From IMG/VR virus record IMGVR_UViG_2585427785_000005: a DNA stretch of 18,927 nucleotides. One strand, 5' to 3'. Positions 1 through 12,408 of the stretch are shown in pieces. The notes under the pieces are model-generated. The model did not search any database, was not told the DNA's origin, and was given only the letters and a program-made list of their open reading frames with translations. The DNA comes from a virus (lineage: Duplodnaviria > Heunggongvirae > Uroviricota > Caudoviricetes). Position numbers and translations under genes: made by a program. Each line of letters begins with the position of its first letter. Position 1 is the stretch's first letter.

Positions 1-171
1 TCAATAAATCCCATCATTGCGATCAACCTCATCCTTAACCATTGATGCGAGCAGTTCTTCCAGTTTCTGCGCTGACAGCTTTACCTGGTGATCTTCAGCA
101 TCTTCCCGGGCTATTGTGGTTCGCGCAGTGGCTGATTTTGCTGACATCACCACAGGGGGCAGACGGACCAT
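1..171 (-). CDS. small hypothetical protein (about 56 aa; 48 aa if started at the ATG at 147)
   Basis: ORF ending in TGA at 1-3 with in-frame ATGs at 171 and 147. The track ORF extends to a TTG at 282 that runs into repeat A and its hairpin, so that extension is doubtful. No motif recognised. Confidence 0.25.
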   Translation of the reverse strand: MVRLPPVVMSAKSATARTTIAREDAEDHQVKLSAQKLEELLASMVKDEVDRNDGIY

Positions 172-235
172 TGAACCATGGCCTCCGGAACAAATAAGGG
201 CAAAAATAACAACCACTATCGAAAGCTCACAAACT

Positions 236-385
236 AACCGCAGCACGTTCCTGCATACGACGTGTCTGCGGCATAATCCCAATGATTACTCCCTGACAGG
301 ATTTGCAGGCCACTCAATATCAGGTACAGTTGATGTATCAACACGATTCAACAATACCCGATATTTATTCCATGCCTCCAGCAAC
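236..385. repeat. direct repeat copy A (~150 bp): 3' end of a tfa gene plus downstream stem-loop
   Basis: Aligns with 1286-1435 at a constant 1050-bp offset, roughly 85-90% identical by eye. Contains an imperfect hairpin CCGCAGCACGT...ACGTGTCTGCGG at 238-272. Confidence 0.8.
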
Positions 386-555
386 GATCTTTCTTCCTCC
401 GTTGCGATTTCCAGATCTACAGCATCCTGCAGTGGCGCAATATACTCACTGAATTCCTGGATGTAGAACTGTGTGGTGACGGTCTTCCAGCCATTCGGCT
501 CCTGCTGTATCGAAGCATACCAGGCTATTTCAATATCGCTATGCTGCGGCAGCAT
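286..555 (-). pseudogene. tfa: tail fibre assembly protein (Tfa), C-terminal fragment, 5'-truncated
   Basis: C-terminus ...[39 protein letters not shown] parallels the C-terminus of the intact Tfa at 3240-3767 (...[34 protein letters not shown]). The N-terminal part is replaced by the promoter region of the opposite-strand methyltransferase. Confidence 0.7.
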
Positions 556-611
556 TTAACCCCTTGTAATTCATCGCCATAATTGATTTAATTCACAAAT
601 AAAACTATAAC

Positions 612-1280
612 ATGGTGAAATCAATGAAAAAAAACACAGATGATGGGGCTAAAATTTACACACCACTTACCCTAAAGCTTTATGACTGGTGGGTTTTGGG
701 AGTATCAAATCGGCTTGCATGGGGATGTCCTACAAAGGAACACCTTCTTCCACACTTTCTGGAACATGTAGGTAACAACCATCTGGATATTGGTGTTGGA
801 ACTGGGTTTTACCTTACTCACGTACCTGAGAGTAGTCTGATATCTTTAATGGATTTGAACGAAGCTAGCCTGAACGCGGCATCTACAAGGGCTGGGGAAT
901 CAAAAATTAAACATAAAATTAGCCATGATGTTTTTGAACCTTATCCCGCGGCGTTACATGGTCAATTTGATTCCATTTCCATGTTTTACCTTCTTCACTG
1001 CCTGCCTGGAAATATATCTACAAAAAGCTGTGTAATACGCAATGCGGCGCAGGCCTTAACTGACGATGGAACTCTATACGGAGCCACAATTCTTGGCGAT
1101 GGAGTTGTGCACAATAGCTTCGGTCAAAAACTGATGCGCATTTACAATCAGAAAGGCATCTTTTCAAACACAAAAGATTCCGAAGAAGGCTTAACACATA
1201 TACTCTCAGAGCATTTCGAGAATGTTAAAACCAAGGTTCAAGGTACTGTAGTAATGTTTTCCGCTTCAGGGAAAAAATAG
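612..1280 (+). CDS. class I SAM-dependent methyltransferase (222 aa), substrate unknown
   Basis: Intact ORF with a glycine-rich motif-I-like LDIGVGTGFY, ending TAG at 1278-1280. From memory it resembles prophage methyltransferases that sit between tfa fragments in E. coli K-12 cryptic prophages (ymfD / ybcY type); this is unverified. Confidence 0.8.
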   Translation: MVKSMKKNTDDGAKIYTPLTLKLYDWWVLGVSNRLAWGCPTKEHLLPHFLEHVGNNHLDIGVGTGFYLTHVPESSLISLMDLNEASLNAASTRAGESKIKHKISHDVFEPYPAALHGQFDSISMFYLLHCLPGNISTKSCVIRNAAQALTDDGTLYGATILGDGVVHNSFGQKLMRIYNQKGIFSNTKDSEEGLTHILSEHFENVKTKVQGTVVMFSASGKK

Positions 1281-1285
1281 CATCC

Positions 1286-1435
1286 AACCGCAGCACGTTC
1301 TTGCTTAAGACGTGCTGCGGCATAATCCCAATGATTACTCCCTGACAGGGTTCGTAGGCCACTCAATATCAGGTGCAGTTGATGTATCAACACGGTTCAG
1401 TAACACCCGATACTTTTTCTAGGCTTCCACCACCA
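1286..1435. repeat. direct repeat copy B (~150 bp): tfa 3' remnant (last ~27 codons) plus perfect 11-bp-stem hairpin
   Basis: Hairpin CCGCAGCACGT-tcttgcttaag-ACGTGCTGCGG at 1288-1320. The minus strand encodes [27 protein letters not shown], the same Tfa C-terminus as copy A. Confidence 0.8.
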
Positions 1436-1436
1436 G

Positions 1437-1685
1437 CACGACAAGATGCCGCATACAGTGAACCAGTCAGTCCAGTTTTCAGACAACCAGTGCGTCACCT
1501 TTTTGAAGGCGCTTTAAAGCACGTTTTAATCCAGGTCGGCCTGTCCTTGTTCCGCTTAATTTATCTTCAAATATTTGTTCATATCCTGCACAAACAAGAG
1601 CGTTTCGTTGCAGATCTGTATTCTGGTCATTTGTTGATACCCTTACATAGCCAATCAGCACGCTGAATCTCCCGTCCAAAAGCAC
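1437..1685 (-). pseudogene. pin: Pin/Gin/Hin-family serine DNA invertase, decayed (N-terminal ~70 codons, two in-frame stops, 3' two-thirds deleted)
   Basis: Translation VLIGYVRVSTNDQNTDLQRNALVCAGYEQIFEDKLSGTRTGRPGLKRALKRLQKGDALVV matches the invertase N-terminus including the catalytic-serine region. It is followed by TGA where Pin has Trp, then KLD, a second stop, and degraded homology LVHCMRHLVVLVVEA that fuses into repeat B. The apparent native start is a GTG at 1659-1661. Confidence 0.85.
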
Positions 1686-1715: not shown

Positions 1716-1741
1716 TTATCTAAAACCTCGGTTTACGAGAA
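1716..1741. repeat. gix/hix-like recombination crossover site (right)
   Basis: TTATCTAAAACCTCGGTTTACGAGAA, a 26-bp imperfect palindrome matching the Gin/Hin/Pin crossover-site pattern as I remember it. It lies just upstream of pin and is inverted relative to the site at 4797-4822. Confidence 0.8.
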
Positions 1742-2675: not shown

Positions 2676-3209
2676 ATGATGCACTTAAAGAACATAAAAG
2701 CGGGTAATGCTAAAACACTGGAACAGTATGAGTTAACAAAGAAACACGGAGTTATCTGGCTTTACTCTGAGGACGGAAAAAACTGGTATGAGGAAGTGAA
2801 AAACTTTCAGCCAGACACCATAAAGATTGTTTACGATGAAAATAATATTATTGTTGCCATAACCAAAGATGCCTCCACACTTAACCCTGAAGGTTATAGC
2901 GTCGTTGAGATTCCTGATATTACCGCCAACCGGCGTGCTGACGACTCAGGTAAATGGATGTTTAAAGATGGCGCAGTCATTAAACGTGTATATACCGAAG
3001 AAGAGTTGCGCCTACAGACGGAAAACCAGAAAAAAATATTATTACAGCAGGCCAGAGAAAAAACGCAGTTCTGGCAAACACAGCTTACTTTGGGGATTAT
3101 CACTGATTCAGACAGACAGCAACTGATGAACTGGATGCGATACGTGCAACAGGTTGAGACAACTGATACCTCGGTTCTTCCTGTAACATTCCCGGAACCA
3201 CCAGAATAA
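2676..3209 (+). CDS. tfa: tail fibre assembly protein, alternative copy inside the invertible segment
   Basis: 177 aa starting [38 protein letters not shown], paralogous to the Tfa at 3240-3767. Its ATG overlaps the stop of the upstream segment. Confidence 0.85.
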
Positions 3210-3210
3210 G

Positions 3211-3234
3211 AAAAGGCCCGTACGGGCCTTAATT
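3211..3234. terminator. bidirectional intrinsic terminator between the convergent tfa genes
   Basis: Hairpin AAGGCCCG-ta-CGGGCCTT at 3213-3230, flanked by an A-run upstream and a T-rich stretch downstream. Confidence 0.55.
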
Positions 3235-3239
3235 TGTTG

Positions 3240-3767
3240 TTATTCTGGTTTCTGTGGCCATTCAGGCTTTGCAGTATCCACACGGCTGACCATAACGCTG
3301 TAGCGTTCCCATGATTCCAGTCGTGTGCGTTCCTCATCAGTTGCCATATTCAGTCTGACAGCACGTTCCAGCGGTTGAATCACAGACTCCGCTTCGGAAA
3401 GCAAAGCGGCTTTTTGTAACTCTGCCTGCTGTTGCAGTTCCTGTTTTGTATATTCCCGCTTTACTACTTTACCATCCAGAAACTTCCAGTTTCCCGAGAT
3501 ATCGGCGCGACGGTTGGCTGTTATATTCGGTAACTCAACAACACTTAACCCGTCAGGGTTAAGCATTGATACGTCTTTCTCAATACAACGAATAATCCCC
3601 TTCTGGTCATAAGCTATTTTTAAAGTATCATCCTGAAAGTTTTTTAATTCGTCATACCAGTTTTTACCGTCTTCTGTATATAGCCAGATAACGCCAGCTT
3701 TTTTCGTAAGCTGATACTGCTCAATGGTTTTGGGGTTTCCGGCGGTAATATTTTTCAGATGTTGCAT
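3240..3767 (-). CDS. tfa: tail fibre assembly protein
   Basis: 175 aa starting [30 protein letters not shown], with an AGGAGA Shine-Dalgarno sequence before the ATG at 3767. Sits immediately downstream of stf. Confidence 0.9.
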
Positions 3768-3782
3768 ATATTCTCCTGATGG

Positions 3783-6689
3783 CTATGCCTGTTCAACGTT
3801 ATACCAGTTACCAGAAATGTATTTTTGTAGTGGTCGTGACACCATCCAGTCATCTCCATCAACCTCACCAATAATTTGCAATCCTGTTGTCACATGACCA
3901 TTACCTGGTTCGCAAAGTCCTCCGCGATATAATGTGTCAGAACGTCTGCCTCCCAGACGCACATTTCTGATAAAAGAACTATTCAGGTAATCATTTAAGT
4001 TTGAACCCCAGCACCCACCAAATATATTTCCATCGGTGTTATAACGGACGCCACCCGCAATAAGAGCACCCGGTGAAATAAAGGATTTATCGTTCGGGTT
4101 AAAATACCATAAAGCATCATTACCTCCATCGCCACGCATATGAATACATGGAACCGGAAATCCATACTGTTCTGTCAGTAAATACCCAAAGCTGACCGCG
4201 CCGGGATAGCCCTGTCCATTGCGAATGGACAAGCCCTTAACTATCGGCACGTAATGACCACCAGGAGTGGGATTCCAGGCAAACTGCGTCTGAACAAAAG
4301 GCGCGGTGGCATTATTCAACTGGTCTGCAAATGCGCCACTTCCATCAGGAATTATTCCCTGATGAATATATGCAACCCGCTTATAAAAATCAGCAGATGC
4401 GGGTTGAAGCCCAAATGCCAGTTGTCCATTTGAATAGAATAAAAGGACACCGTCGCCGCCCTGTTTAATACCAGTGTCGTTATCTCCGAGAGTAATGGAA
4501 TTACCGCCCAGTGCGTTATCTGTACCAAGCGCCAGCCCACCATCAATTTTGGCCCCGTGGCTGACAGATATAGCACCTGTTCTCAGATTTATAGCGAATG
4601 GCCTTAATGGGCCGATATCACCGTTTTCGCCTTGTCCTTCAGCCGTCGGAATGAAATGAAGAAAATCTTCTGAACGACGGAAAATAAGACCGAAGGCATC
4701 ATTGAAAATTCGCAGCGCATTCACCGTGCCAATTTTCAGTTCTCCGGTCATTTTATCGCCGGAACGCTGAACGGCGTTACCAGCCTTGTTTACCGTTTCC
4801 TGTAAACCGAGGTATTCGATAACGGCGGCAACGGTCGATTTCGCAAGAATATCCCGCCCAACTTTTGTCAGGATTGCCAGACTGGCAACATCATTCCCCG
4901 TAAAATACGGAAACCTGTCTGCCGCAGTAGCAAGCCCGGCCAGCGCCGTCAGGGTGGCATCTTTCGGTTGCTTACCCGCAAGCGCGCTAGTCATGGTGGT
5001 CGCAAAATTCGGGTCGTTGCCCAACGCCGCAGCCAGCTCGTTCAGCGTATTCAGTGCGTCAGGCGACGAGTCCACGAGGGCAGCGATCGCAGCCATAACA
5101 TAAGCCGTGCTTGCGATTTGGGTATTATTCGTTCCCTGTCGCGCAGTTGGTGTTGTTGGCGTTCCGGTCAGTGCAGGACTATTTAAGGGCGCTTTCTTGT
5201 TCGTTTCACCCATTACCGCCTTAACCGCTTTTGGCGTTGCCGCCAGTGACTCGGAAGTGCTGTTGGTCGCACTGCTGAGCTGTACTATCCCCTTTTTCGT
5301 CGTGCTCGCATCCTCCAGCGCCACGGCGGATGCAATATCCTCTGCCCGTTTTGCTGCTGTCTCGGCGCGCGTTGCCGCGGATTCCGCCGTACTTTTGCTC
5401 TGAGCTGCCGCCGTCGCACTACCAGCTGCCTCTGATGCTTTCGTTGTTGCTGTCGTGGCACTACCTTTCGCTGCTGACGCTTGTCTGGTCGCCTCATCTT
5501 TTGAAGCAGACGCAGATGATGCCGATGACGCCGCTGAACTGGCTGACGATGCGGCTGCCGCCTTAGAGGAAGCAGCATTGTCTGCTGAAGTCTTTGCATT
5601 TGTTTCAGAGGTTTTTGCTGCAGAAGCAGACCTCGCTGCTGCAGTGGCTTGCTCAGTGGCTTTGCCAGCCTTCGTTGTGGCTGTTGAAGCGGATGATGCG
5701 GCGCTTTCTGCCGATTTTCCGGCGGCGGTGGCACTGGCTGAGGCCTGCCCGGCACTTGTTGACGCGGCACTGGCAGATAATGCAGCCGCTGTTTTTGAAC
5801 CTGCCGCAGCTGAGGCGCTCTGTCCCGCTGCTGTTTCAGAAGACTTAGCGTTCGTCTCGGACGTTTTTGCCGCCTTCGCGGAATTTCCTGCCGCCGTTGC
5901 CGAGGAAGCTGCACTACTGGCACTTGATGATGCATTCGTTTCTGAAGATTTCGCTGCCTCTTTTGAGGCCGCCGCACCCCGTGCCGAGGTGGCAGCTTCT
6001 GACGCCTTCGTGGTCGCTGTGGATGCAGAAGTGGCTGCCGATTTTTGTGATGCTGCGGCATTCGTTTCTGACGTTTTCGCGGCACTGGCGCTGGTAGCTG
6101 CCGCGCTTTTTGATGACTCTGCAGCAGCAGCACTTTTTGCTGCTTCACGGGCCTTTGTCGATGCCGTTCCTGCGCTGGAAGACGCTGACTGAGCCGACGA
6201 CGCGGCCTGTCCGGCTGACGTGCTGGCGGCACGTGCTGAGGCTGCAGCATCGGTTGCATGAGTTGCCGCCTCGCTGGCTGATGCACTGGCATCGCTGACT
6301 GATTTTTTCGCGGCTGCCGTATTCTGTGCAACCGCGGAGGCGTTACGTGACACCTCTTCTACCATCTGCTCAAAGCGGCGCAGTGCCTCCGGTCGGACAT
6401 CATCCTCCGTCATGGCACCGAGAAAATCATTCAGCGTACCTGGTCTGGAACCTTCATAGACGGTAATGGTCCCGGCATGTGAAGGCGGAAAACCTTCAAC
6501 CAGCAGGGTGACGCTGTACTGACCATGCTCAACATCCATGCTGTAACGTCCGGCTTCATCCGGATTTTCAGAGGCCACCGTGTTCACCACCACCGTGCTG
6601 CTGGTTCGTCTGGCCTTCAGCACAATGGTGCAGTTCTGTACTGGTTTTCCTGTGCCATCTTTAAGCACGCCAGAAATTTTTACTGTCAT
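3783..6689 (-). CDS. stf: side tail fibre protein (968 aa)
   Basis: N-terminus MTVKISGVLKDGTGKPVQNCTIVLKARR...GRYSMDVEHGQYSVTL is lambda Stf-like, followed by a long Ala/Ser/Thr-rich repetitive shaft. The gix-like site lies inside the coding sequence (encoding VIEYLGLQE) at the constant/variable junction. C-terminus ...QKYISGNWYNVEQA. Confidence 0.9.
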   Translation of the reverse strand: MTVKISGVLKDGTGKPVQNCTIVLKARRTSSTVVVNTVASENPDEAGRYSMDVEHGQYSVTLLVEGFPPSHAGTITVYEGSRPGTLNDFLGAMTEDDVRPEALRRFEQMVEEVSRNASAVAQNTAAAKKSVSDASASASEAATHATDAAASARAASTSAGQAASSAQSASSSAGTASTKAREAAKSAAAAESSKSAAATSASAAKTSETNAAASQKSAATSASTATTKASEAATSARGAAASKEAAKSSETNASSSASSAASSATAAGNSAKAAKTSETNAKSSETAAGQSASAAAGSKTAAALSASAASTSAGQASASATAAGKSAESAASSASTATTKAGKATEQATAAARSASAAKTSETNAKTSADNAASSKAAAASSASSAASSASSASASKDEATRQASAAKGSATTATTKASEAAGSATAAAQSKSTAESAATRAETAAKRAEDIASAVALEDASTTKKGIVQLSSATNSTSESLAATPKAVKAVMGETNKKAPLNSPALTGTPTTPTARQGTNNTQIASTAYVMAAIAALVDSSPDALNTLNELAAALGNDPNFATTMTSALAGKQPKDATLTALAGLATAADRFPYFTGNDVASLAILTKVGRDILAKSTVAAVIEYLGLQETVNKAGNAVQRSGDKMTGELKIGTVNALRIFNDAFGLIFRRSEDFLHFIPTAEGQGENGDIGPLRPFAINLRTGAISVSHGAKIDGGLALGTDNALGGNSITLGDNDTGIKQGGDGVLLFYSNGQLAFGLQPASADFYKRVAYIHQGIIPDGSGAFADQLNNATAPFVQTQFAWNPTPGGHYVPIVKGLSIRNGQGYPGAVSFGYLLTEQYGFPVPCIHMRGDGGNDALWYFNPNDKSFISPGALIAGGVRYNTDGNIFGGCWGSNLNDYLNSSFIRNVRLGGRRSDTLYRGGLCEPGNGHVTTGLQIIGEVDGDDWMVSRPLQKYISGNWYNVEQA
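4797..4822. repeat. gix/hix-like recombination crossover site (left), inside stf
   Basis: TTCCTGTAAACCGAGGTATTCGATAA. The reverse complement of the right site is TTCTCGTAAACCGAGGTTTTAGATAA, so the two are inverted repeats sharing the core AAACCGAGGT. Confidence 0.8.
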
Positions 6690-6700
6690 ACTTTTCCACC

Positions 6701-6737
6701 AATAAAAAAAGCCCGCAGCAGTGACGCCACGGGCTTC
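6701..6737 (-). terminator. intrinsic terminator downstream of lom
   Basis: On the minus strand the stem AAGCCCG/CGGGCTT is followed by TTTTTTTATT. Confidence 0.5.
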
Positions 6738-6840
6738 AGGACAGTGTAACTTTACGTTTCCTCAAACGCAGTTCACCCCATAAGGTGGATGAACCTGCGT
6801 ATCATAACAATATTTACAGAAGATAAATCGGCGTCTGTTG

Positions 6841-7440
6841 TCAGAAACGGTATCCGATACCAACAATAAATGCATCCGTTCGCCAGTCGCCACTACCGGA
6901 ACCTTCATAAGCAAGGTCAATGGTCACGGATTCGGTCGGATTAAACTGCACGCCAGCCCCCCACGCCAGAGACGTGTTGCTGTGGCGACCGTCATCACTT
7001 CCGGTCAGCACATCGTGCGTTTTCCCCTTGTTGTCAGTTACGCGGAGATAATCCCCGGAGAAAGTCGACACACGGCTGTAAGCCACACCCACCATCGCAT
7101 ACGCGCTGAACCATTCATTCACGCGTACAGACGGCCCCGCCATCACGCTGAACCAGCGGTTACGCACGGAATCTTCATGCCAGCGGGTATCGCTGTAGCG
7201 CGTTTTTTGCTCATCCTCAGCATTGGCATAACTGAAGGACGTAATCAGCCCCAGCGCGTCCGTAAACTCATAACGGTATTTCACGTTAATCCCGTTCAGA
7301 TCATCACTACCGGGAACGTTCGTCGAGGCATGGAGATACCCCGCGCTCAGCGTGGACTGATGTTCTGCTGCACTCGCTGGCGTAGCAGCGGCGACCTGCC
7401 AGACTACTGCGGACAAAATAACAGCACATAATTTACGCAT
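6841..7440 (-). CDS. lom: Lom/Ail/OmpX-family outer membrane protein
   Basis: 199 aa with a signal peptide MRKLCAVILSAVVWQVAAATPASAAE and a C-terminal ...GIGYRF beta-barrel ending. Sits between J and stf as in lambda. GAGAGGT Shine-Dalgarno sequence before the ATG. Confidence 0.85.
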   Translation of the reverse strand: MRKLCAVILSAVVWQVAAATPASAAEHQSTLSAGYLHASTNVPGSDDLNGINVKYRYEFTDALGLITSFSYANAEDEQKTRYSDTRWHEDSVRNRWFSVMAGPSVRVNEWFSAYAMVGVAYSRVSTFSGDYLRVTDNKGKTHDVLTGSDDGRHSNTSLAWGAGVQFNPTESVTIDLAYEGSGSGDWRTDAFIVGIGYRF

Positions 7441-7461
7441 AATTACCTCTCGCTTTTCTGC

Positions 7462-7488
7462 AATAAAAAAGGCGCCATTTCTGGCGCC
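7462..7488 (-). terminator. intrinsic terminator downstream of J
   Basis: Hairpin GGCGCCA-gaaa-TGGCGCC followed by TTTTTTATTG on the minus strand. Confidence 0.55.
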
Positions 7489-7507
7489 CGTATCTGGGTT
7501 ATAAAAT

Positions 7508-10261
7508 TCAGCTAATCGTGATGCCTGCAGTGGCTTTCTTCATCACCACAACCAGCAAATCGCTGATACTTGCTGTGGGATACCAGTTATTTACCAGCCA
7601 TGCTGACACCGAAAACTCCAGTGTCATGTGACCGTGACCGGCAGGCATATCAATAACACCACTGTAAATCAGCGTATTATCCAGCGCGGTACGGTTATAA
7701 ATTTCAGCACCGTTTTTCCGCACTATCAGACGGCATGAGGAGTAAATATCAGTATGCTCTTTCTCATGTTTAGCGCCGCTGAATGCCACCGCCGGAATAA
7801 CAATCTGCCGGTCAAACGGCTGATCGTCATAAACCCTGACGGTAATGGTTCCTGATGGCCACCGCTCCGGTGCACGGGAGTCCCGGGGGAAAGCTTTGCC
7901 CACTGTTTTAACGAGATCGCCTTCAATCTGGTTCGCGGACAATTTTCCCAGAACCCGACAGTTCTCGTTAATCGTGACGTTGTTGAGCGTCCCGGAGTTC
8001 GCATTCACGTTACCGCTGATATCGGCATTTTTCGCCGTCAGCCGCCCGTCCGGTGTCAGGGAAAATGCCGGAGGATTACCGCCGCTGGTAATGGTGGGAG
8101 CCGTCAGATATTTCAGGAACACTTCATTCATAAATATCTGATCGCCCTGACCAACAAACATCGGCTTTGTGTTGCCATTCGCAGGATTAATCATCGCAAT
8201 CCTGTCTGCCGCCAGCAGCACCTGACTCTGCATTCCTGCTGGCGTATTCTCAATACCGGCACCGATACCCGCAATATAAAGGCGTCCGTCCTGCATCTGC
8301 TGCAGTTTCACGGCCCACATGCTGTTCAGGTTATTATTTGTATCAACCTGAACTTTCTGTATCTGCTGGATTGCCGCACTCTGATTTTCCAGTTTTTTAT
8401 TGACGGTCTGCGTGATTTCATTGCTGACATTCGTAATGGACGTCCTGATTTCAGCCAGGTCCGGCGCAAGCTGACCGTTATCAATCTGCGTCCACAGCTC
8501 CTGGGCCAGATGTGTTTTCCCGATTTCTCCTTTGAAAAAATCCAGGTAACCTTCCGCATCATCGCTCGCCCGACCGACAGCCTCCACGAATGCCGATTTG
8601 CCGACTGTATTCACACTGCGGATATAAAAATAATAATCATGGCCCGGCTTGATATTGATACTGGCAGCTATCCAGTACAGCGCCGAGCCAAGATAGCGGG
8701 CTGCGGTTTCAACCTGCCTGATATCCGCAATCCGCTTTTCTGAGAACCAGAACTCAAACTGTACCGTCGGATCATAAACGGCAAGATACGGCGTGGCGGT
8801 TATCTGAAAATAGCCCGGCGTCAGCTCAATCCGCGACGGCGCTGCCGGTGCGGCAATCCGGAACGATACCGATGCCGGATCGCCCTGCTGCCCCCACGCA
8901 TTTGCCGCCCGGACTGTCAGCCTGTAGTTTCCCAGCGCCAGTTGCGTGAAGCGGTATGTGGTTTCCGTCGTCCTGGCCGTGCTGACCAGCCGCTCACTGC
9001 CGTCATCCGCTGCCACGGTCAGGCGAAGCAGGAAGCTCACGCCCTTCACCACCTTCGGCGTGTCCCAGCGGGCCAGTACCTGATATTCCCCGCTGTCTGC
9101 GGTGACTTCGGCAGTCAGGTGCTGCACCGCTGGCGGCGTGACACCATTCACCGTGCCGCTCTGGTCGCCGTCAAAGTGCGCCCCGTTATCCACGATGGCT
9201 TCTTTTTCCGGTACATGCTGCACGGCGGTGATGGCATACGTGCCGTCATCGTTCTCACGGATACTCACGCAGCGGAACAGGCGCTGGCGCAACGTCGGCA
9301 GCTTCAGCCCCCATACGCTGTATTCAGCAACGCCGTCAGGAACACGGCTCACTTTCACCTTCACGCCGTCGGTGACGGACTGAACCTCCACGCTGACCGG
9401 ACTCCCCTGCCCGTCAACCAGGCTTATCAGCGTGGTGCCGGAAGATGGCAGCGTGATTTCACGGTCGAGCGTCAGCGTCCGGGTCTGGCTGTTTACCGCC
9501 AGCACGCGCCCGCCGGTGCGGATACCGGCATAGTCATCATCGCAGATTTCAATGACATCGCCCGGTACATGGCGAAGCCCTTCGGCACCCACGCTGAAGT
9601 CCACGGTCTGCGTTTCCAGCAGTTCTGTTTTAATCAGCCACAGCCCGGCGCGGTGTGCCTGCCCCCGGCTGGTACAGCCAAAAGCATCCATCTTCGTGAC
9701 GTTACGACCGTAACGGGCAATGGCCTGCGTGTCCTCCACAAGCTCTGTCGCCGTCTCCCAGCCGTTATTCGGGTCAATCCAGTTCACCTCAACGGCATTA
9801 TGGCGGTCCTTCAGGGCGCTGAAGCTGTAGCGGAACGGCGCACCATCATCCGGCATCACCACATTACTGCGGTTATAGGTCCACACCTTATCCGATGGCC
9901 GGTCCTGCACAAACGTCAGCGTCTGCCCGTTCCATACCGGCATACAGCGCATCGCCGAGCAGAAATCACTGAGCACATCCCACGCCTTGCGCTGCGTGGT
10001 CAGGTACGCATTACAGGTAATACGCGGCTCCGTGCCACCAAAGCCATCCGGCACCGACTGGTCGCAATTCTGGCCGATGACATACAGCGCCCATTTATCC
10101 ACATCCGCCGCACCAAGACGTTTCCCCATGCCGTAGCGCGGATGGGTCAGCATATCCCACAGACACCAGGCCATGTTGTTGCTGTATGCCGGTTTAAACG
10201 TTCCGTCCCAGATACCGCTGTACAGTTCATGATGCCAACCTGAAACGGCAGTGTTTCCCAC
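7508..10261 (-). CDS. J: tail tip / host specificity protein J, C-terminal ~900 aa (5'-truncated remnant with an open 917-codon frame)
   Basis: Large ORF in the lambda J position (upstream of lom and stf). The frame is open only from about 10285. The true N-terminal third of J and all head and tail-shaft genes are absent. Confidence 0.8.
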
Positions 10262-10939: not shown

Positions 10940-11120
10940 CATTATCAAATACAAGGCCCGACATGAAAACGCCAAAAAAAGGCATTTTCGGACACTTTCA
11001 TGTCGGACATTTATGAATGCAATATTAAAAAAAACAAAAAGTTATATTCGAGAAGTACCGACACGATTTTCCCTGAAAAATTTTCATAAATAGTGAAAAA
11101 CCGCGAGGTCGCCGCCCCGT
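10940..11120 (-). promoter_or_regulatory. cos site: cosN (cohesive-end sequence at 11106-11117) plus cosB-like repeated TerS-binding elements
   Basis: The minus strand reads GGGGCGGCGACCTCGCGGTTTTTCACTATTTATGAAAATTTT, almost identical to the left end of lambda cos as I remember it. Between cosN and the Nu1 start there are three copies of a TGTCCGAC/TCGGACA-like element (10947-10998). Confidence 0.85.
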
Positions 11121-11340
11121 AACGATCTGGATCACCGGAAAGGACCCGCCAACGACTTTCGCGTGCAGGCATTAAAAATTTTGCAGTTCCATGCCTAGTT
11201 GAAACCTCGATTTCTATAACATCCAATTTTGTAAATTTAGATATAGCTCAACTTTTCCCAATGTTTTCAAGTGTATAAAAACAATTGGCGTTACGCCATA
11301 ACACTATACTTAGGATAAGTAAAGATTTTAAGGAGTTTTA

Positions 11341-12408
11341 ATGAGTCAACATCAATATTATCCACAGCTGAAATGGAAGCCTGCTGAATATGAATCTCTG
11401 ATGCTTTTAGATCAAACTACGCTCTCTGGTTTTACTCCGATCATTACCATTCCAGACATAGACTGGGATTATGAAAACGAATGCTACAAGAAGAGTTTGA
11501 GTTCTTACTTATCTGACTTCGGTATTAACCTTGCGGCATCCTGGAAAGCCAATCGTCCTGTTTTGCTGGATGTTAAATATTTAGATAAACATGGTTCGAG
11601 CCGCCATCATCCTCTAGATATGTGTATCCAAGATGCTAGAGTAAATGGTAAGGAAATTATCCCTGTTGTTTCTCCCGCATATTCAACAAACTATATACAT
11701 GCTGTTCAACGCAACTTAATCAATGGGCTCGCTATATCTATCACCCCCCAGACATGGCACCAATTCACAAGTCTGGTTAACCACTTAAATATTCATCCTA
11801 GTTTAATTGATGTAATCATTGATTTTGGAGATATTCAAAACGCAACTGATAGTTTAAAACAACAAGCATTAAGCATGGTCAACACATTATCAGGCCAAGC
11901 TCCGTGGAGAAACTTGATTTTATCTTCAACCGCATACCCGGCATCACAGGCAGGGATACCGCAACATCAAGTCCATCATATTCCGCGCCATGAATACGAT
12001 CTTTGGATGTACGTAGTACAGAATTTTAGCAATGGAAGAACGCCAAGTTTTAGTGATTATCCCACCGCTAGCTCTACCATTACGAGCGTAGACCCACGCT
12101 TCATGTCTCAGTATGTCTCAGTGAGATATTCGAACGATACCTCATGGATCTTTGTAAAAGGTACCGCAGTTAAAGGAAATGGATGGGGCCAAACTAAAAA
12201 CTTATGTACTACCCTTGTTAGTTCGCCAGAGTATCAAGTCTTTGGCTCCAAATTTAGTTGGGGGGATGATTACATTTACCAAAGATCATTAGGCGCTAAC
12301 AAATCTGGCGGCTCTAAAGAATGGCGTAAAGTTGCACATACGCACCATATTACGTTAGTCGTGAGACAGCTTTATTGGTTGGCGCAGACTCAGCCTGCCA
12401 AGCCTTAA
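11341..12408 (+). CDS. hypothetical protein, 355 aa (moron gene; possibly beta / sce7725-like family, unverified)
   Basis: Intact ORF in low-GC DNA with AAGGAG 7 nt before the ATG and an AT-rich promoter-like region at 11220-11335. No catalytic motif I can name by eye. Confidence 0.7.
   Translation: MSQHQYYPQLKWKPAEYESLMLLDQTTLSGFTPIITIPDIDWDYENECYKKSLSSYLSDFGINLAASWKANRPVLLDVKYLDKHGSSRHHPLDMCIQDARVNGKEIIPVVSPAYSTNYIHAVQRNLINGLAISITPQTWHQFTSLVNHLNIHPSLIDVIIDFGDIQNATDSLKQQALSMVNTLSGQAPWRNLILSSTAYPASQAGIPQHQVHHIPRHEYDLWMYVVQNFSNGRTPSFSDYPTASSTITSVDPRFMSQYVSVRYSNDTSWIFVKGTAVKGNGWGQTKNLCTTLVSSPEYQVFGSKFSWGDDYIYQRSLGANKSGGSKEWRKVAHTHHITLVVRQLYWLAQTQPAKP

Follow-up and report, generated by a model that had tools for sequence, protein, structure and literature searches.

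Near one end of a stretch of Caudoviricetes DNA (IMG/VR record IMGVR_UViG_2585427785_000005; 18,927 nt, hereafter the window), a methyltransferase gene stands between two direct repeats, each consisting of the end of a tail-fibre-assembly gene (tfa) and a hairpin. This raises the questions of how the gene came to lie between two tfa ends and what its product might do. We argue that it is probably cargo, a "moron"-type module in the b-region of lambdoid prophages, which carries a single joint to a tfa fragment (tfa') and was later recombined at tfa ends. The layout itself is already known and ordinary, being the tfaD-ybcY-tfaX arrangement of DLP12, and represents textbook lambdoid mosaicism at the conserved ends of tail-fibre-assembly genes. 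Its value is modest: it offers a clean, datable recombination scar, in which one joint has been inherited by all tfa'-bearing loci examined while the outer flanks reassort. The interval and its surroundings comprise the following features.

1–189, minus strand: C-terminal fragment of a side-tail-fibre gene (stf; DUF4376), tail-fibre debris left of copy A; a RefSeq pseudogene with an internal stop
236–383, minus strand: repeat copy A, the last ~32 tfa codons and a hairpin; from 331 onward common to the phage loci (99%)
238–271, no strand: hairpin A, a conserved stem-loop of the tfa 3' end, here with a 1-nt bulge
286–555, minus strand: tfa' fragment (tfaX-type), an 89-aa ORF matching Caudo_TAP (PF02413) positions 75–130 of 131
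556–611, plus strand: candidate promoter region of the methyltransferase, divergent from tfa'
612–1280, plus strand: YbcY-family class I SAM methyltransferase, annotated as a CDS of 222 aa, opposite to stf/tfa
1286–1432, minus strand: repeat copy B, a hairpin and ~32 terminal codons of the tfa usually found before the methyltransferase
1288–1320, no strand: hairpin B, whose perfect 11-bp stem begins 7 nt past the methyltransferase stop
1433–1661, minus strand: decayed N-terminal remnant of pin (Din-family serine invertase), with a Pfam Resolvase N-terminal domain; a RefSeq pseudogene
1716–1741, plus strand: pix-like crossover site of the adjacent frozen invertible stf/tfa segment, outside the module
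~4804–4815, minus strand: partner pix-like site of the same neighbouring segment

The methyltransferase gene is intact and widespread

The 222-aa open reading frame matched Methyltransf_12 in Pfam with 37.5 bits (cut-off 30), as well as Methyltransf_23 (29.0 bits; cut-off 27), Methyltransf_25 (27.7; 27) and Methyltransf_11 (24.6; 21.2). The SAM-binding motif I, D59-I-G-V-G-T-G65, and the acidic residue D81 at the end of strand β2 were invariant in 43 homologues, and the protein has the seven-stranded α/β fold of class I (Rossmann-fold) methyltransferases. Pfam, motif I and fold alike agree with the first-pass annotation of the window, which had assigned this opposite-strand gene to the class I SAM methyltransferases. 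The match to phrog_2132 (E = 4.2e-157) covered profile positions 1–218 of 218, and the gene shared 98.95% nucleotide identity with K-12 ybcY (b0562). Judged by its sequence, the gene belongs to YbcY/phrog_2132 and to the phage-borne Escherichia clade of that family. Translation probably starts at ATG 624 (M5), which would give a protein of 218 aa, since homologues have this length, M5 is invariant and phrog_2132 aligns with residues 5–222.

Two candidate promoters precede the gene. The hexamers TTAACC-16-CATAAT occupy positions 556–583, and the K-12 ybcY promoter sequence TTGATT-17-TATAAC, which RNAP SELEX lists as a constitutive σ70 promoter of ybcY with an H-NS site (PMC3946193), is present at 583–611. 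The whole promoter region (556–611) was invariant in seven diverse loci.

The gene is very common and is carried by viable phages: among 5426 complete E. coli genomes, 3836 (71%) have it, in 4882 copies whose DNA identity is 95% or more throughout, and it was also present in 15 phage records. All 93 full-length copies taken from loci were intact, a count biased by the choice of IMG/VR loci as best methyltransferase matches, and pN/pS was 0.27, a weak signal of purifying selection. The gene was also kept intact in a DLP12 remnant that has shrunk to int'-tfa'-hairpin-methyltransferase-ompT. That the methyltransferase might be a pseudogene in most homologues, which would have spoken against the initial interpretation of the locus, is not the case, as most copies are intact.

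Outside Escherichia and Shigella, the relatives of the gene (at most 75% amino-acid identity) are solitary chromosomal genes. None of 72 loci from other species had a tfa within 3 kb of the methyltransferase homologue, and these chromosomal homologues shared no conserved neighbour or partner gene, showing synteny at the genus level only.

The repeats are ends of tail-fibre-assembly genes

The repeats consist of a block of 29 nt (236–264 and 1286–1314; 90% identical) and a block of 118 nt (266–383 and 1315–1432; 88% identical), offset by a 1-nt indel and spaced by 1050 and then 1049 nt. BLAST merged the two copies into a single alignment of 148 nt with 87.8–88.5% identity. The tfa stop codons lie on the minus strand at 286–288 in copy A and 1335–1337 in copy B, each followed by a stem-loop, and copy B contains an in-frame TAG (CTA at 1419–1421 on the plus strand). 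The original description of ~150-bp direct repeats formed by tfa 3' ends with hairpins was therefore accurate, with ~32 codons in each copy and an identity of ~88%, and the fusions that it proposed were also found. Copy B adjoins the N-terminal remnant of the decayed pin gene, as identified by the Pfam domain and by RefSeq, while copy A forms the 3' end of the truncated tfa, an 89-aa C-terminal fragment. A full-length Tfa, with its variable fibre-binding domain at the N terminus and its conserved C-terminal domain, is encoded by neither, copy A supplying the C-terminal part only and copy B 32 codons and a stop.

Copy B shared 97–98% identity with full-length tfa genes at their 3' ends, namely those of PhiR26_1 and 2G7b and K-12 tfaD. 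On the side of copy A, positions 236–330 were found only in the left flank of the type seen in the window (window-type), and the stf fragment at 1–189 shared 72% DNA identity with stf from the phages Rac-SA53 and SerU-LTIIb.

Residues 27–89 of tfa' correspond to the conserved Tfa C-terminal domain. Homology to lambda Tfa begins at residue 27 and covers the last 63 residues of the lambda protein only, while phrog_2341 matches the ORF over its full length. The 5' part of tfa' (463–555) showed no similarity to the neighbouring full-length tfa. The joint can be placed only between ~462 and 528, because tfa' residues 1–26 (478–555) have no traced source. Most sampled loci have the 89-aa ORF intact, and it has a PHROG of its own, phrog_2341; across loci it is also broken in at least eight different ways, being truncated, frameshifted, stopped or absent. 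From this pattern, tfa' is best read as a pseudogene scar, and it may have some residual function.

A recombinant between copies A and B would resemble an ordinary tfa, and a search for the products of such repeat-mediated deletion singled none out. In phage Ayreon, the body of the methyltransferase gene is missing through an internal deletion, not through recombination between the copies.

A hairpin shared by convergent genes

Hairpin B is built of CCGCAGCACGT, an 11-nt loop and ACGTGCTGCGG; the perfect 11-bp stem-loop reported earlier for copy B is thereby located at 1288–1320. Its folding energies were -25.1 and -30.0 kcal/mol (z of -5.1 and -4.4 against shuffles), compared with -18.8 kcal/mol on the plus strand and -29.3 kcal/mol on the minus strand for hairpin A (z of about -3.5), so that both fold far better than shuffled sequence (z = -3.5 to -5.1). 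On the tfa-sense strand, the terminator scan flagged hairpin A, whose tail reads GTTAGTTTGT. For hairpin B it raised no flag on the methyltransferase strand, where no U-tract was found; the U-run of this hairpin starts ~10 nt past the stem, and the U-tracts of the hairpins on the tfa strand are imperfect.

The hairpin 3' of the methyltransferase stop was present in 94 of 95 copies, the remaining one being cut by an IS, and in ten loci homology stops exactly at the hairpin end. Of 81 loci whose flanks were long enough, 60 had hairpin A upstream of the gene. The 3' hairpin also occurs in lambda, where a compensatory change has turned a C:G pair of the stem into A:T. These features mark hairpin B as a putative shared 3' element of the convergent tfa and methyltransferase genes. 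Most likely, it would end tfa and late transcription and stabilise or terminate the convergent methyltransferase mRNA.

The flanks reassort around a constant unit

Clustering of the flanks yielded 11 upstream and 18 downstream clusters, which occurred in many combinations. The window-type left flank was present in 818 genomes, the junction of pin and tfa, a minority variant, in 426; 378 genomes had the complete arrangement, and ~3400 the gene without the pin fusion. Viable phages, like about half of the sampled loci, have an intact 194-aa tfa before the methyltransferase.

Inside these flanks, the stretch from the methyltransferase ATG to ~331 was the same in six diverse tfa'-bearing loci. The repeat register was 1047–1050 bp in the window, phage and K-12 types, among the tfa'-bearing loci that were aligned or register-checked. 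An absence of the repeats from other methyltransferase loci had been named as evidence that would tell against the initial interpretation; they were instead found in the same register in every tfa'-bearing arrangement that was register-checked. The constant unit spans ~529–1326 and comprises the promoter region, the methyltransferase and the hairpin.

Both outer breakpoints of the window, ~330/331 and 1432/1433, lie within tfa 3' sequence. The first-pass annotation had considered either recombination at the conserved 3' end of tfa genes or insertion into tfa. The former is supported by the independent reassortment of the two flanks, with breakpoints inside tfa 3' sequence. The latter is not, since in these phages and about half of the sampled loci the methyltransferase follows an intact 194-aa tfa, with which it shares the 3' hairpin, in the position of lambda ea47.

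Known counterparts

The arrangement in E. coli K-12 cryptic prophages to which the annotation had pointed proved to be that of DLP12, in which tfaD is followed by ybcY on the opposite strand and by tfaX (and further by appY and ompT). The methyltransferase there is the same and has the same orientation; a hairpin-bearing tfa 3' end stands to one side of it and a tfa fragment to the other, the inner joint is that of the window, and the repeat register is 1047 bp. However, K-12 ybcY is a pseudogene owing to a 2-nt deletion, tfaX is cut to 61 aa, and tfaD is full length where the window has the fusion to the pin remnant. The left flank of K-12 diverges from ~309 leftwards, towards appY and ompT, and has no second hairpin.

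In their b-regions, the viable lambdoid phages PhiR26_1, 2G7b and ev243 (Nesevirus) likewise have tail-fibre genes (J-lom-stf-tfa in PhiR26_1, with a tfa of 194 aa), the hairpin, the opposite-strand methyltransferase and then tfa'. The methyltransferase is 99% identical to that of the window, as is tfa' over window positions 331 to 611. Their tfa' differs in having another 3' tail without hairpin A, followed by an alpha/beta hydrolase, ompT and int, and these phages have no pin or invertible segment.

A related layout is found in the b-region of lambda, where tfa/orf-194 and the hairpin are followed by ea47, an accessory gene that is convergent to tfa and shares its 3' hairpin. Lambda differs in having ea47 with neither methyltransferase nor tfa fragment. 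The methyltransferase was absent from lambda, HK629/630 and mEp460, although tfa and the hairpin were present in them.

Morons and mosaic joints are established concepts for lambdoid phages (Hendrix/Juhala). As in a moron, the methyltransferase is present in some related phages and not in others at a given map position, the unit is AT-richer than its surroundings and has a candidate promoter of its own, and a partial gene was left at the novel joint. It departs from the concept in its terminator, which would be provided only through the hairpin shared with tfa.

Origin of the arrangement

The order of events that we infer begins with a single capture of the gene from a solitary chromosomal gene family of Gammaproteobacteria and its placement in the position of lambda ea47, convergent to tfa. 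The repeats would then derive from the 3' ends of two distinct tfa genes. One of these is the tfa that normally stands before the methyltransferase; viable phages still have it at full length, and copy B would be its end. Copy A would be the end of tfa', a fragment left by an illegitimate, out-of-register recombination in which the middle of another phage's tfa became joined to the upstream side of the methyltransferase. This joint would have arisen once and been inherited by every tfa'-bearing locus aligned; that the inner joint is identical in all of them points to a single recombination event. Later, the module would have moved among prophages by homologous recombination within the conserved sequence of the Tfa C-terminal domain. 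In the ST131-type prophage represented here, the left breakpoint would lie at ~330/331, with another tfa 3' end, its hairpin and stf debris beyond it. On the right, past 1432, the tfa would have been replaced by a pre-existing pin::tfa fusion derived from a dead invertible tail-fibre module. A pin::tfa joint also occurs without the methyltransferase, in ETEC O6:H16. The B2-type locus, which lacks tfa', could be either an ancestor or a deletion derivative.

The fixed register of 1047–1050 bp in every arrangement type checked would be expected equally if the repeats were the remains of a tandem duplication of one tfa 3' region in a single phage genome, with the methyltransferase caught between them, and in the window-type flank the hairpins of both copies are indeed of one type. 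We nevertheless regard such a duplication as unlikely. Identity between the copies is only 85–89% everywhere, against at least 98% conservation of the methyltransferase that they enclose; the 5' part of tfa' does not resemble the neighbouring full-length tfa, and the phage-type tfa' ends in another 3' tail and lacks the hairpin.

An autonomous mobile cassette of methyltransferase and hairpin, aimed at tfa terminator hairpins and duplicating its target on insertion, would account for the hairpin staying with the gene even where tfa sequence is missing on the right, and for the hairpin on each side in the window-type flank. Versions of the gene that are 87–90% identical also occur in IS-rich, plasmid-like and other contexts. 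Such a cassette is nonetheless hardly credible: it has no linked transposase or integrase, 21 of 81 loci lack the upstream hairpin, the duplicated stretch of 150–300 bp far exceeds any target-site duplication, and the chromosomal homologues are associated with neither hairpin nor tfa. The identical inner joint again argues for one event.

That the interval is what remains of a second invertible (Din/Pin) tail-fibre module, as had also been suggested, would fit the pin remnant next to copy B and the genuine invertible stf/tfa segment next door, but this reading is in effect already refuted and its probability is negligible, as the repeats are direct, 236–1435 contains no pix-like site (the pix-like sites lie outside), the module occurs without an adjacent invertase in viable phages and the ~3400 genomes lacking the fusion, and known invertible modules hold stf C-terminal regions and tfa but no methyltransferase. 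The Din-family segments Mu G, P1 C and e14 P are bounded by inverted crossover sites and adjoin an active invertase; the interval has direct repeats and a pin that is cut at ~codon 86, reaches down to ~1433 and carries two in-frame TGA codons.

Enzyme class and possible function

The literature on ybcY, tfaX and moron methyltransferases yielded promoter and H-NS SELEX data and no functional study. Assignment to an NCBIfam subfamily was not obtained, the matches to CpaM, RquA and PmtA all being below threshold. Membership of the phospholipid N-methyltransferase PmtA family was rejected at 15.7 bits against a cut-off of 390 (NF045882), and that of RquA at 16.9 bits against 175. YbcY thus falls outside every characterised subfamily.

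The AF2 model of the protein had a mean pLDDT of 90.5. Its structural neighbours form a flat list at TM ~0.6 that names no substrate, and profile matches were to JHAMT and UbiG. Bacterial PmtA (8ys9), JHAMT (7ec0), PfPMT (3uj7), Coq5/UbiG and DhpI are 12–21% identical to YbcY, with TM of ~0.55–0.66; for PmtA 8ys9 (TM 0.61–0.66, 15–17% identity) the resemblance is structural only. The modelled fold resembles those of small-molecule and lipid methyltransferases, not those of DNA methylases.

Phages often carry orphan DNA methylases, and among the PADLOC defence models the protein gave a marginal match to mad2 alone (E = 0.009). It is still very unlikely that YbcY is an orphan DNA (or RNA) methylase guarding phage or host nucleic acid: the (D/N/S)PP(Y/F/W) and PCQ/ENV motifs are absent from its sequence, 218 aa leave no space for a target-recognition domain, and the chromosomal homologues are solitary, without a restriction partner. 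No DNA methylase was among the top structural neighbours listed, and a few tRNA/cap methyltransferases appeared low in the flat list.

YbcY most likely methylates a small molecule or lipid to the benefit of the lysogen. More tentatively, it might be a lysogenic-conversion enzyme, a phage-spread small-molecule or lipid methyltransferase whose product helps the lysogen or changes the cell surface. Its substrate may be, for example, an envelope amine or phospho-ethanolamine-type head group, or a toxic metabolite. Such a role would explain why ~70% of E. coli genomes have kept the gene intact, including where the prophage has shrunk to ompT and ybcY, and if a substrate is found, YbcY could prove to be an overlooked lysogenic-conversion function. 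Y16 and H129 of YbcY are spaced along the sequence like the Tyr19/His132 dyad of PfPMT.

Source locus and annotated features

ST131 E. coli genomes such as EC958 (NZ_HG941718) match positions 1-2000 of the window with 100% identity, and in EC958 this stretch lies in a lambdoid prophage adjoining trp/ompW, at its tail-fibre end. The RefSeq annotation of the region comprises the following features:

up to 189, minus strand: DUF4376/stf pseudogene fragment
left of the methyltransferase, minus strand: tfa pseudogene fragment
612-1280, plus strand: class I SAM methyltransferase, WP_000240999
1225-1362, minus strand: hypothetical protein of 45 aa, WP_001309429, sharing sequence with the 3' end of the methyltransferase, the hairpin and the region of the tfa stop
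1335-1418, minus strand: second tfa fragment
1482-1661, minus strand: recombinase (pin) fragment
right of the pin fragment: stf'/tfa'/tfa/stf block

The 45-aa ORF is probably spurious. Left of the first hairpin (window 1-189; 11045-11874 of the prophage locus), a C-terminal stf (DUF4376) fragment is followed by Rha and ash family genes and a truncated ompW. This prophage end is a pile of pieces from several phages.

The repeats and their flanks

The first-pass annotation had described a class I methyltransferase on the opposite strand, bracketed by direct repeats of tfa 3' ends with hairpins, and Pfam bore out the assignment of the enzyme. A repeat search paired 236-264 with 1286-1314 (90%) and 266-383 with 1315-1432 (88%), two blocks in the same orientation set off by a 1-nt indel, which BLAST merged into a single 148-nt repeat of ~88% identity. 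The left copy (A) and the right copy (B) each close with the stop codon of a tfa gene, followed by a stem-loop. The stem of hairpin B (1288-1320) is a perfect 11 bp, as had been noted, while hairpin A (238-271) has one base bulged; in both, folding is far stronger than in shuffled controls (z = -3.5 to -5.1). A codon that reads TGG in copy A and in lambda is TAG in copy B.

The flanks were likewise as described, with a truncated tfa on one side and a decayed pin on the other. In Pfam, the 89-aa ORF on the left (tfa'; 286-555, minus strand) aligns to no more than the C-terminal part of Caudo_TAP, and the ORF to the right of copy B to the N-terminal region of a resolvase/invertase. By direct reading, pin homology extends from 1661 down to ~1433 and is interrupted by two in-frame TGA codons; with these and a cut at ~codon 86, the invertase is dead.

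The suggestion that the repeats are a remnant of a second invertible module found no support, as they are direct and most carriers have no invertase beside the gene. The sole pix-like crossover sites, 1716-1741 (plus strand) and ~4804-4815 (minus strand), lie outside and bound the neighbouring ~3.07-kb tail-fibre segment (stf C-terminus/tfa and tfa'/stf'). Since both sites survive beside a dead pin, this segment is now frozen in one orientation.

A DLP12-type module

The window methyltransferase is YbcY, with 98.95% DNA identity to K-12 ybcY; the record of the phage PhiR26_1 names its own copy 'YbcY'. The tfa - methyltransferase - tfa-fragment order that the first-pass annotation ascribed to K-12 cryptic prophages proved to be that of DLP12, which reads tfaD, ybcY (opposite strand; pseudogene), tfaX, appY, ompT. 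Fifteen phage records carry the gene, viable lambdoid phages among them. PhiR26_1 has the order J, lom, stf, tfa (194 aa), methyltransferase (opposite strand), tfa' (101 aa), alpha/beta hydrolase, ompT, int, and phages 2G7b and ev243 repeat it from methyltransferase to int past their own tail-fibre genes. In lambda, ea47 occupies the exact position taken by the methyltransferase. These gene orders identify the methyltransferase as an accessory gene of the b-region that runs convergent to tfa. The window arrangement is thus one recombinant variant of the known DLP12-type tfa-ybcY-tfa' module, whose mechanism is ordinary and for which annotation already exists.

The same stem-loop lies behind tfa in lambda (NC_001416, 22558-22615), its stem bearing a compensatory change from C:G to A:T, so that the hairpin is a conserved piece of the tfa 3' end, common to any convergent gene behind it. 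In the lambda tfa/ea47 interval this structural element is apparently unannotated.

Variation of the module across loci

We compared 95 methyltransferase copies from IMG/VR proviruses, phages and selected genomes. The constant part of the module runs from ~529 to 1326 and always includes the methyltransferase; the promoter region is invariant in seven highly diverse loci. A hairpin follows the methyltransferase stop in 94 of the 95 copies, being cut by an IS in the remaining one, and rightward similarity stops precisely at the hairpin end in 10 loci. A full-length tfa (180-220 aa) stands on the right in about half of the loci, and the pin::tfa fusion was found in 426 genomes (~11% of carriers).

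On the left, window positions 331-611 are 99% identical to phage loci, and the match to the flank of K-12 and APEC type begins at 309 (~92%). Left of ~331 the 3' end of a different tfa takes over in the window, carrying hairpin A and followed by stf debris. This flank is present in 818 genomes; phage-type loci have another tail there, without a hairpin. Hairpin A occurs in 60 of the 81 loci having sufficient flank. A B2-type DLP12 remnant (FDAARGOS_1372, NZ_CP070063, 2868-5850) reads argU, int', tfa' (375 nt), hairpin, intact methyltransferase, ompT, the last two being its last intact genes; its left side lacks tfa', and upstream of the methyltransferase the similarity stops at ~528.

Other cargo was seen between the methyltransferase hairpin and a full-length tfa in O157:H7 FRIK2455 (4722-7552; a general-stress, ferritin-like, Mn-catalase cluster) and in APEC O78 (4722-6507; ynaM, ydfK and an intact pin), which makes the hairpin boundary a recurrent insertion point for cargo. 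ETEC O6:H16 2011EL-1370-2 (NZ_CP022912, 3989-4390) has the pin::tfa 3' junction of the window at a different chromosomal site, bioA/ybhB, beside a diguanylate cyclase gene; this locus has neither methyltransferase nor hairpin, and its similarity begins at window 1348, within the tfa 3' end.

Origin of the repeats

Upstream and downstream flank types are freely combined, and the repeats recur at other methyltransferase loci, with a register of 1047-1050 bp in every checked arrangement having both tfa pieces. The shared inner joint and this fixed register indicate one founding event, in which out-of-register recombination probably fused the sequence upstream of the methyltransferase with the central part of a second tfa, leaving the tfaX-type 3' fragment tfa'. 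Homology of tfa' to lambda-type Tfa proteins starts no earlier than residue 27 and its DNA similarity to the neighbouring full-length tfa ends at ~462, placing the joint between ~462 and 528. With lengths of 89, 101, 106, 88, 82, 66, 61, 40, 32, 28 or 11 codons, or none, tfa' behaves as a scar. Later exchanges would have used conserved tfa C-terminal-domain sequence as homology; both outer boundaries of the window module lie inside it, in agreement with the proposed recombination at the tfa 3' end. The C-terminal Tfa domain is the one that North et al. reportedly found in 2019 to be conserved. Lambdoid phages are described by modular and moron models, and on these the history of the module is ordinary mosaicism.

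The first-pass annotation was correct in what it observed and only partly in how it read it: insertion of a cassette into tfa finds no support, given that the phages carry an intact tfa. A within-genome tandem duplication, which would also account for the fixed register, is a minor possibility: identity between the copies is 85-89% everywhere, against at least 98% conservation of the gene they enclose. That the methyltransferase is a mobile cassette targeting hairpins is unlikely: a single joint has been inherited, no recombinase is present, and an upstream hairpin is missing from 21 of 81 loci.

Conservation and predicted activity of YbcY

Of 5426 complete E. coli genomes, 3836 carry the gene, at 4882 places (at most 4 per genome), with every copy at least 95% identical in DNA. 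Decay is not its usual state: among loci chosen by protein similarity, all 93 full-length copies are intact and pN/pS among distinct variants is 0.27, on small numbers (15 synonymous, 14 non-synonymous), and the 222-aa protein cluster has 6589 members versus a few hundred truncated ones. K-12 ybcY is a pseudogene through a 2-nt deletion. In phage Ayreon (MF807953, ~3000-3360) there remain the 3' part of a tfa with the hairpin, the final ~37 nt of the methyltransferase, the region upstream of that gene and the tfa' start. The gene body was lost by an internal deletion of ~670 bp, not by recombination between the repeats, so that the methyltransferase is dispensable for lytic growth.

Relatives at 50-75% identity are widespread in Gammaproteobacteria (Enterobacter, Salmonella, Yersinia, Erwinia, Proteus, Pseudomonas, Xanthomonadales) as solitary chromosomal genes; none of 72 loci has a tfa within 3 kb, and no neighbour is conserved beyond genus level. 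The comparative genomics that had been proposed thus limits the tfa association to a clade of at least 99% identity in Escherichia and Shigella. Versions at 87-90% occur outside any tail-fibre context, adjoining DinI and a CdiI-like immunity gene in Citrobacter freundii and on a CcdAB/integrase/IS-rich contig, probably a plasmid, in Salmonella enterica.

The proposed structural analysis pointed to a class of substrates rather than a single one. AlphaFold modelled the protein with confidence (mean pLDDT 90.5), and the structural neighbours of the model belong to small-molecule and lipid methyltransferases (PmtA, JHAMT, PfPMT, Coq5, DhpI and natural-product enzymes); PDB profiles matched JHAMT and UbiG. 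Neither a DNA-methylase motif, a target-recognition domain nor a partner gene was found in or at the gene, and defence-system models gave no convincing match. Our best guess is that YbcY is a predicted small-molecule or lipid methyltransferase serving the lysogen.

Judged by sequence, translation probably starts at ATG 624 rather than at the annotated ATG 612, since M5 is invariant, homologues are 218 aa long and alignment to the PHROG profile begins at residue 5. The listed K-12 ybcY promoter, TTGATT-17-TATAAC, is found at window 583-611; ATG 612 overlaps its -10 hexamer (TATAAC, 606-611), and GGTGA precedes ATG 624. The gene (38-45% GC) is AT-richer than its left flank, and the K-12 ybcY/tfaX spacer is bound by RpoD holoenzyme and H-NS (PMC3946193).
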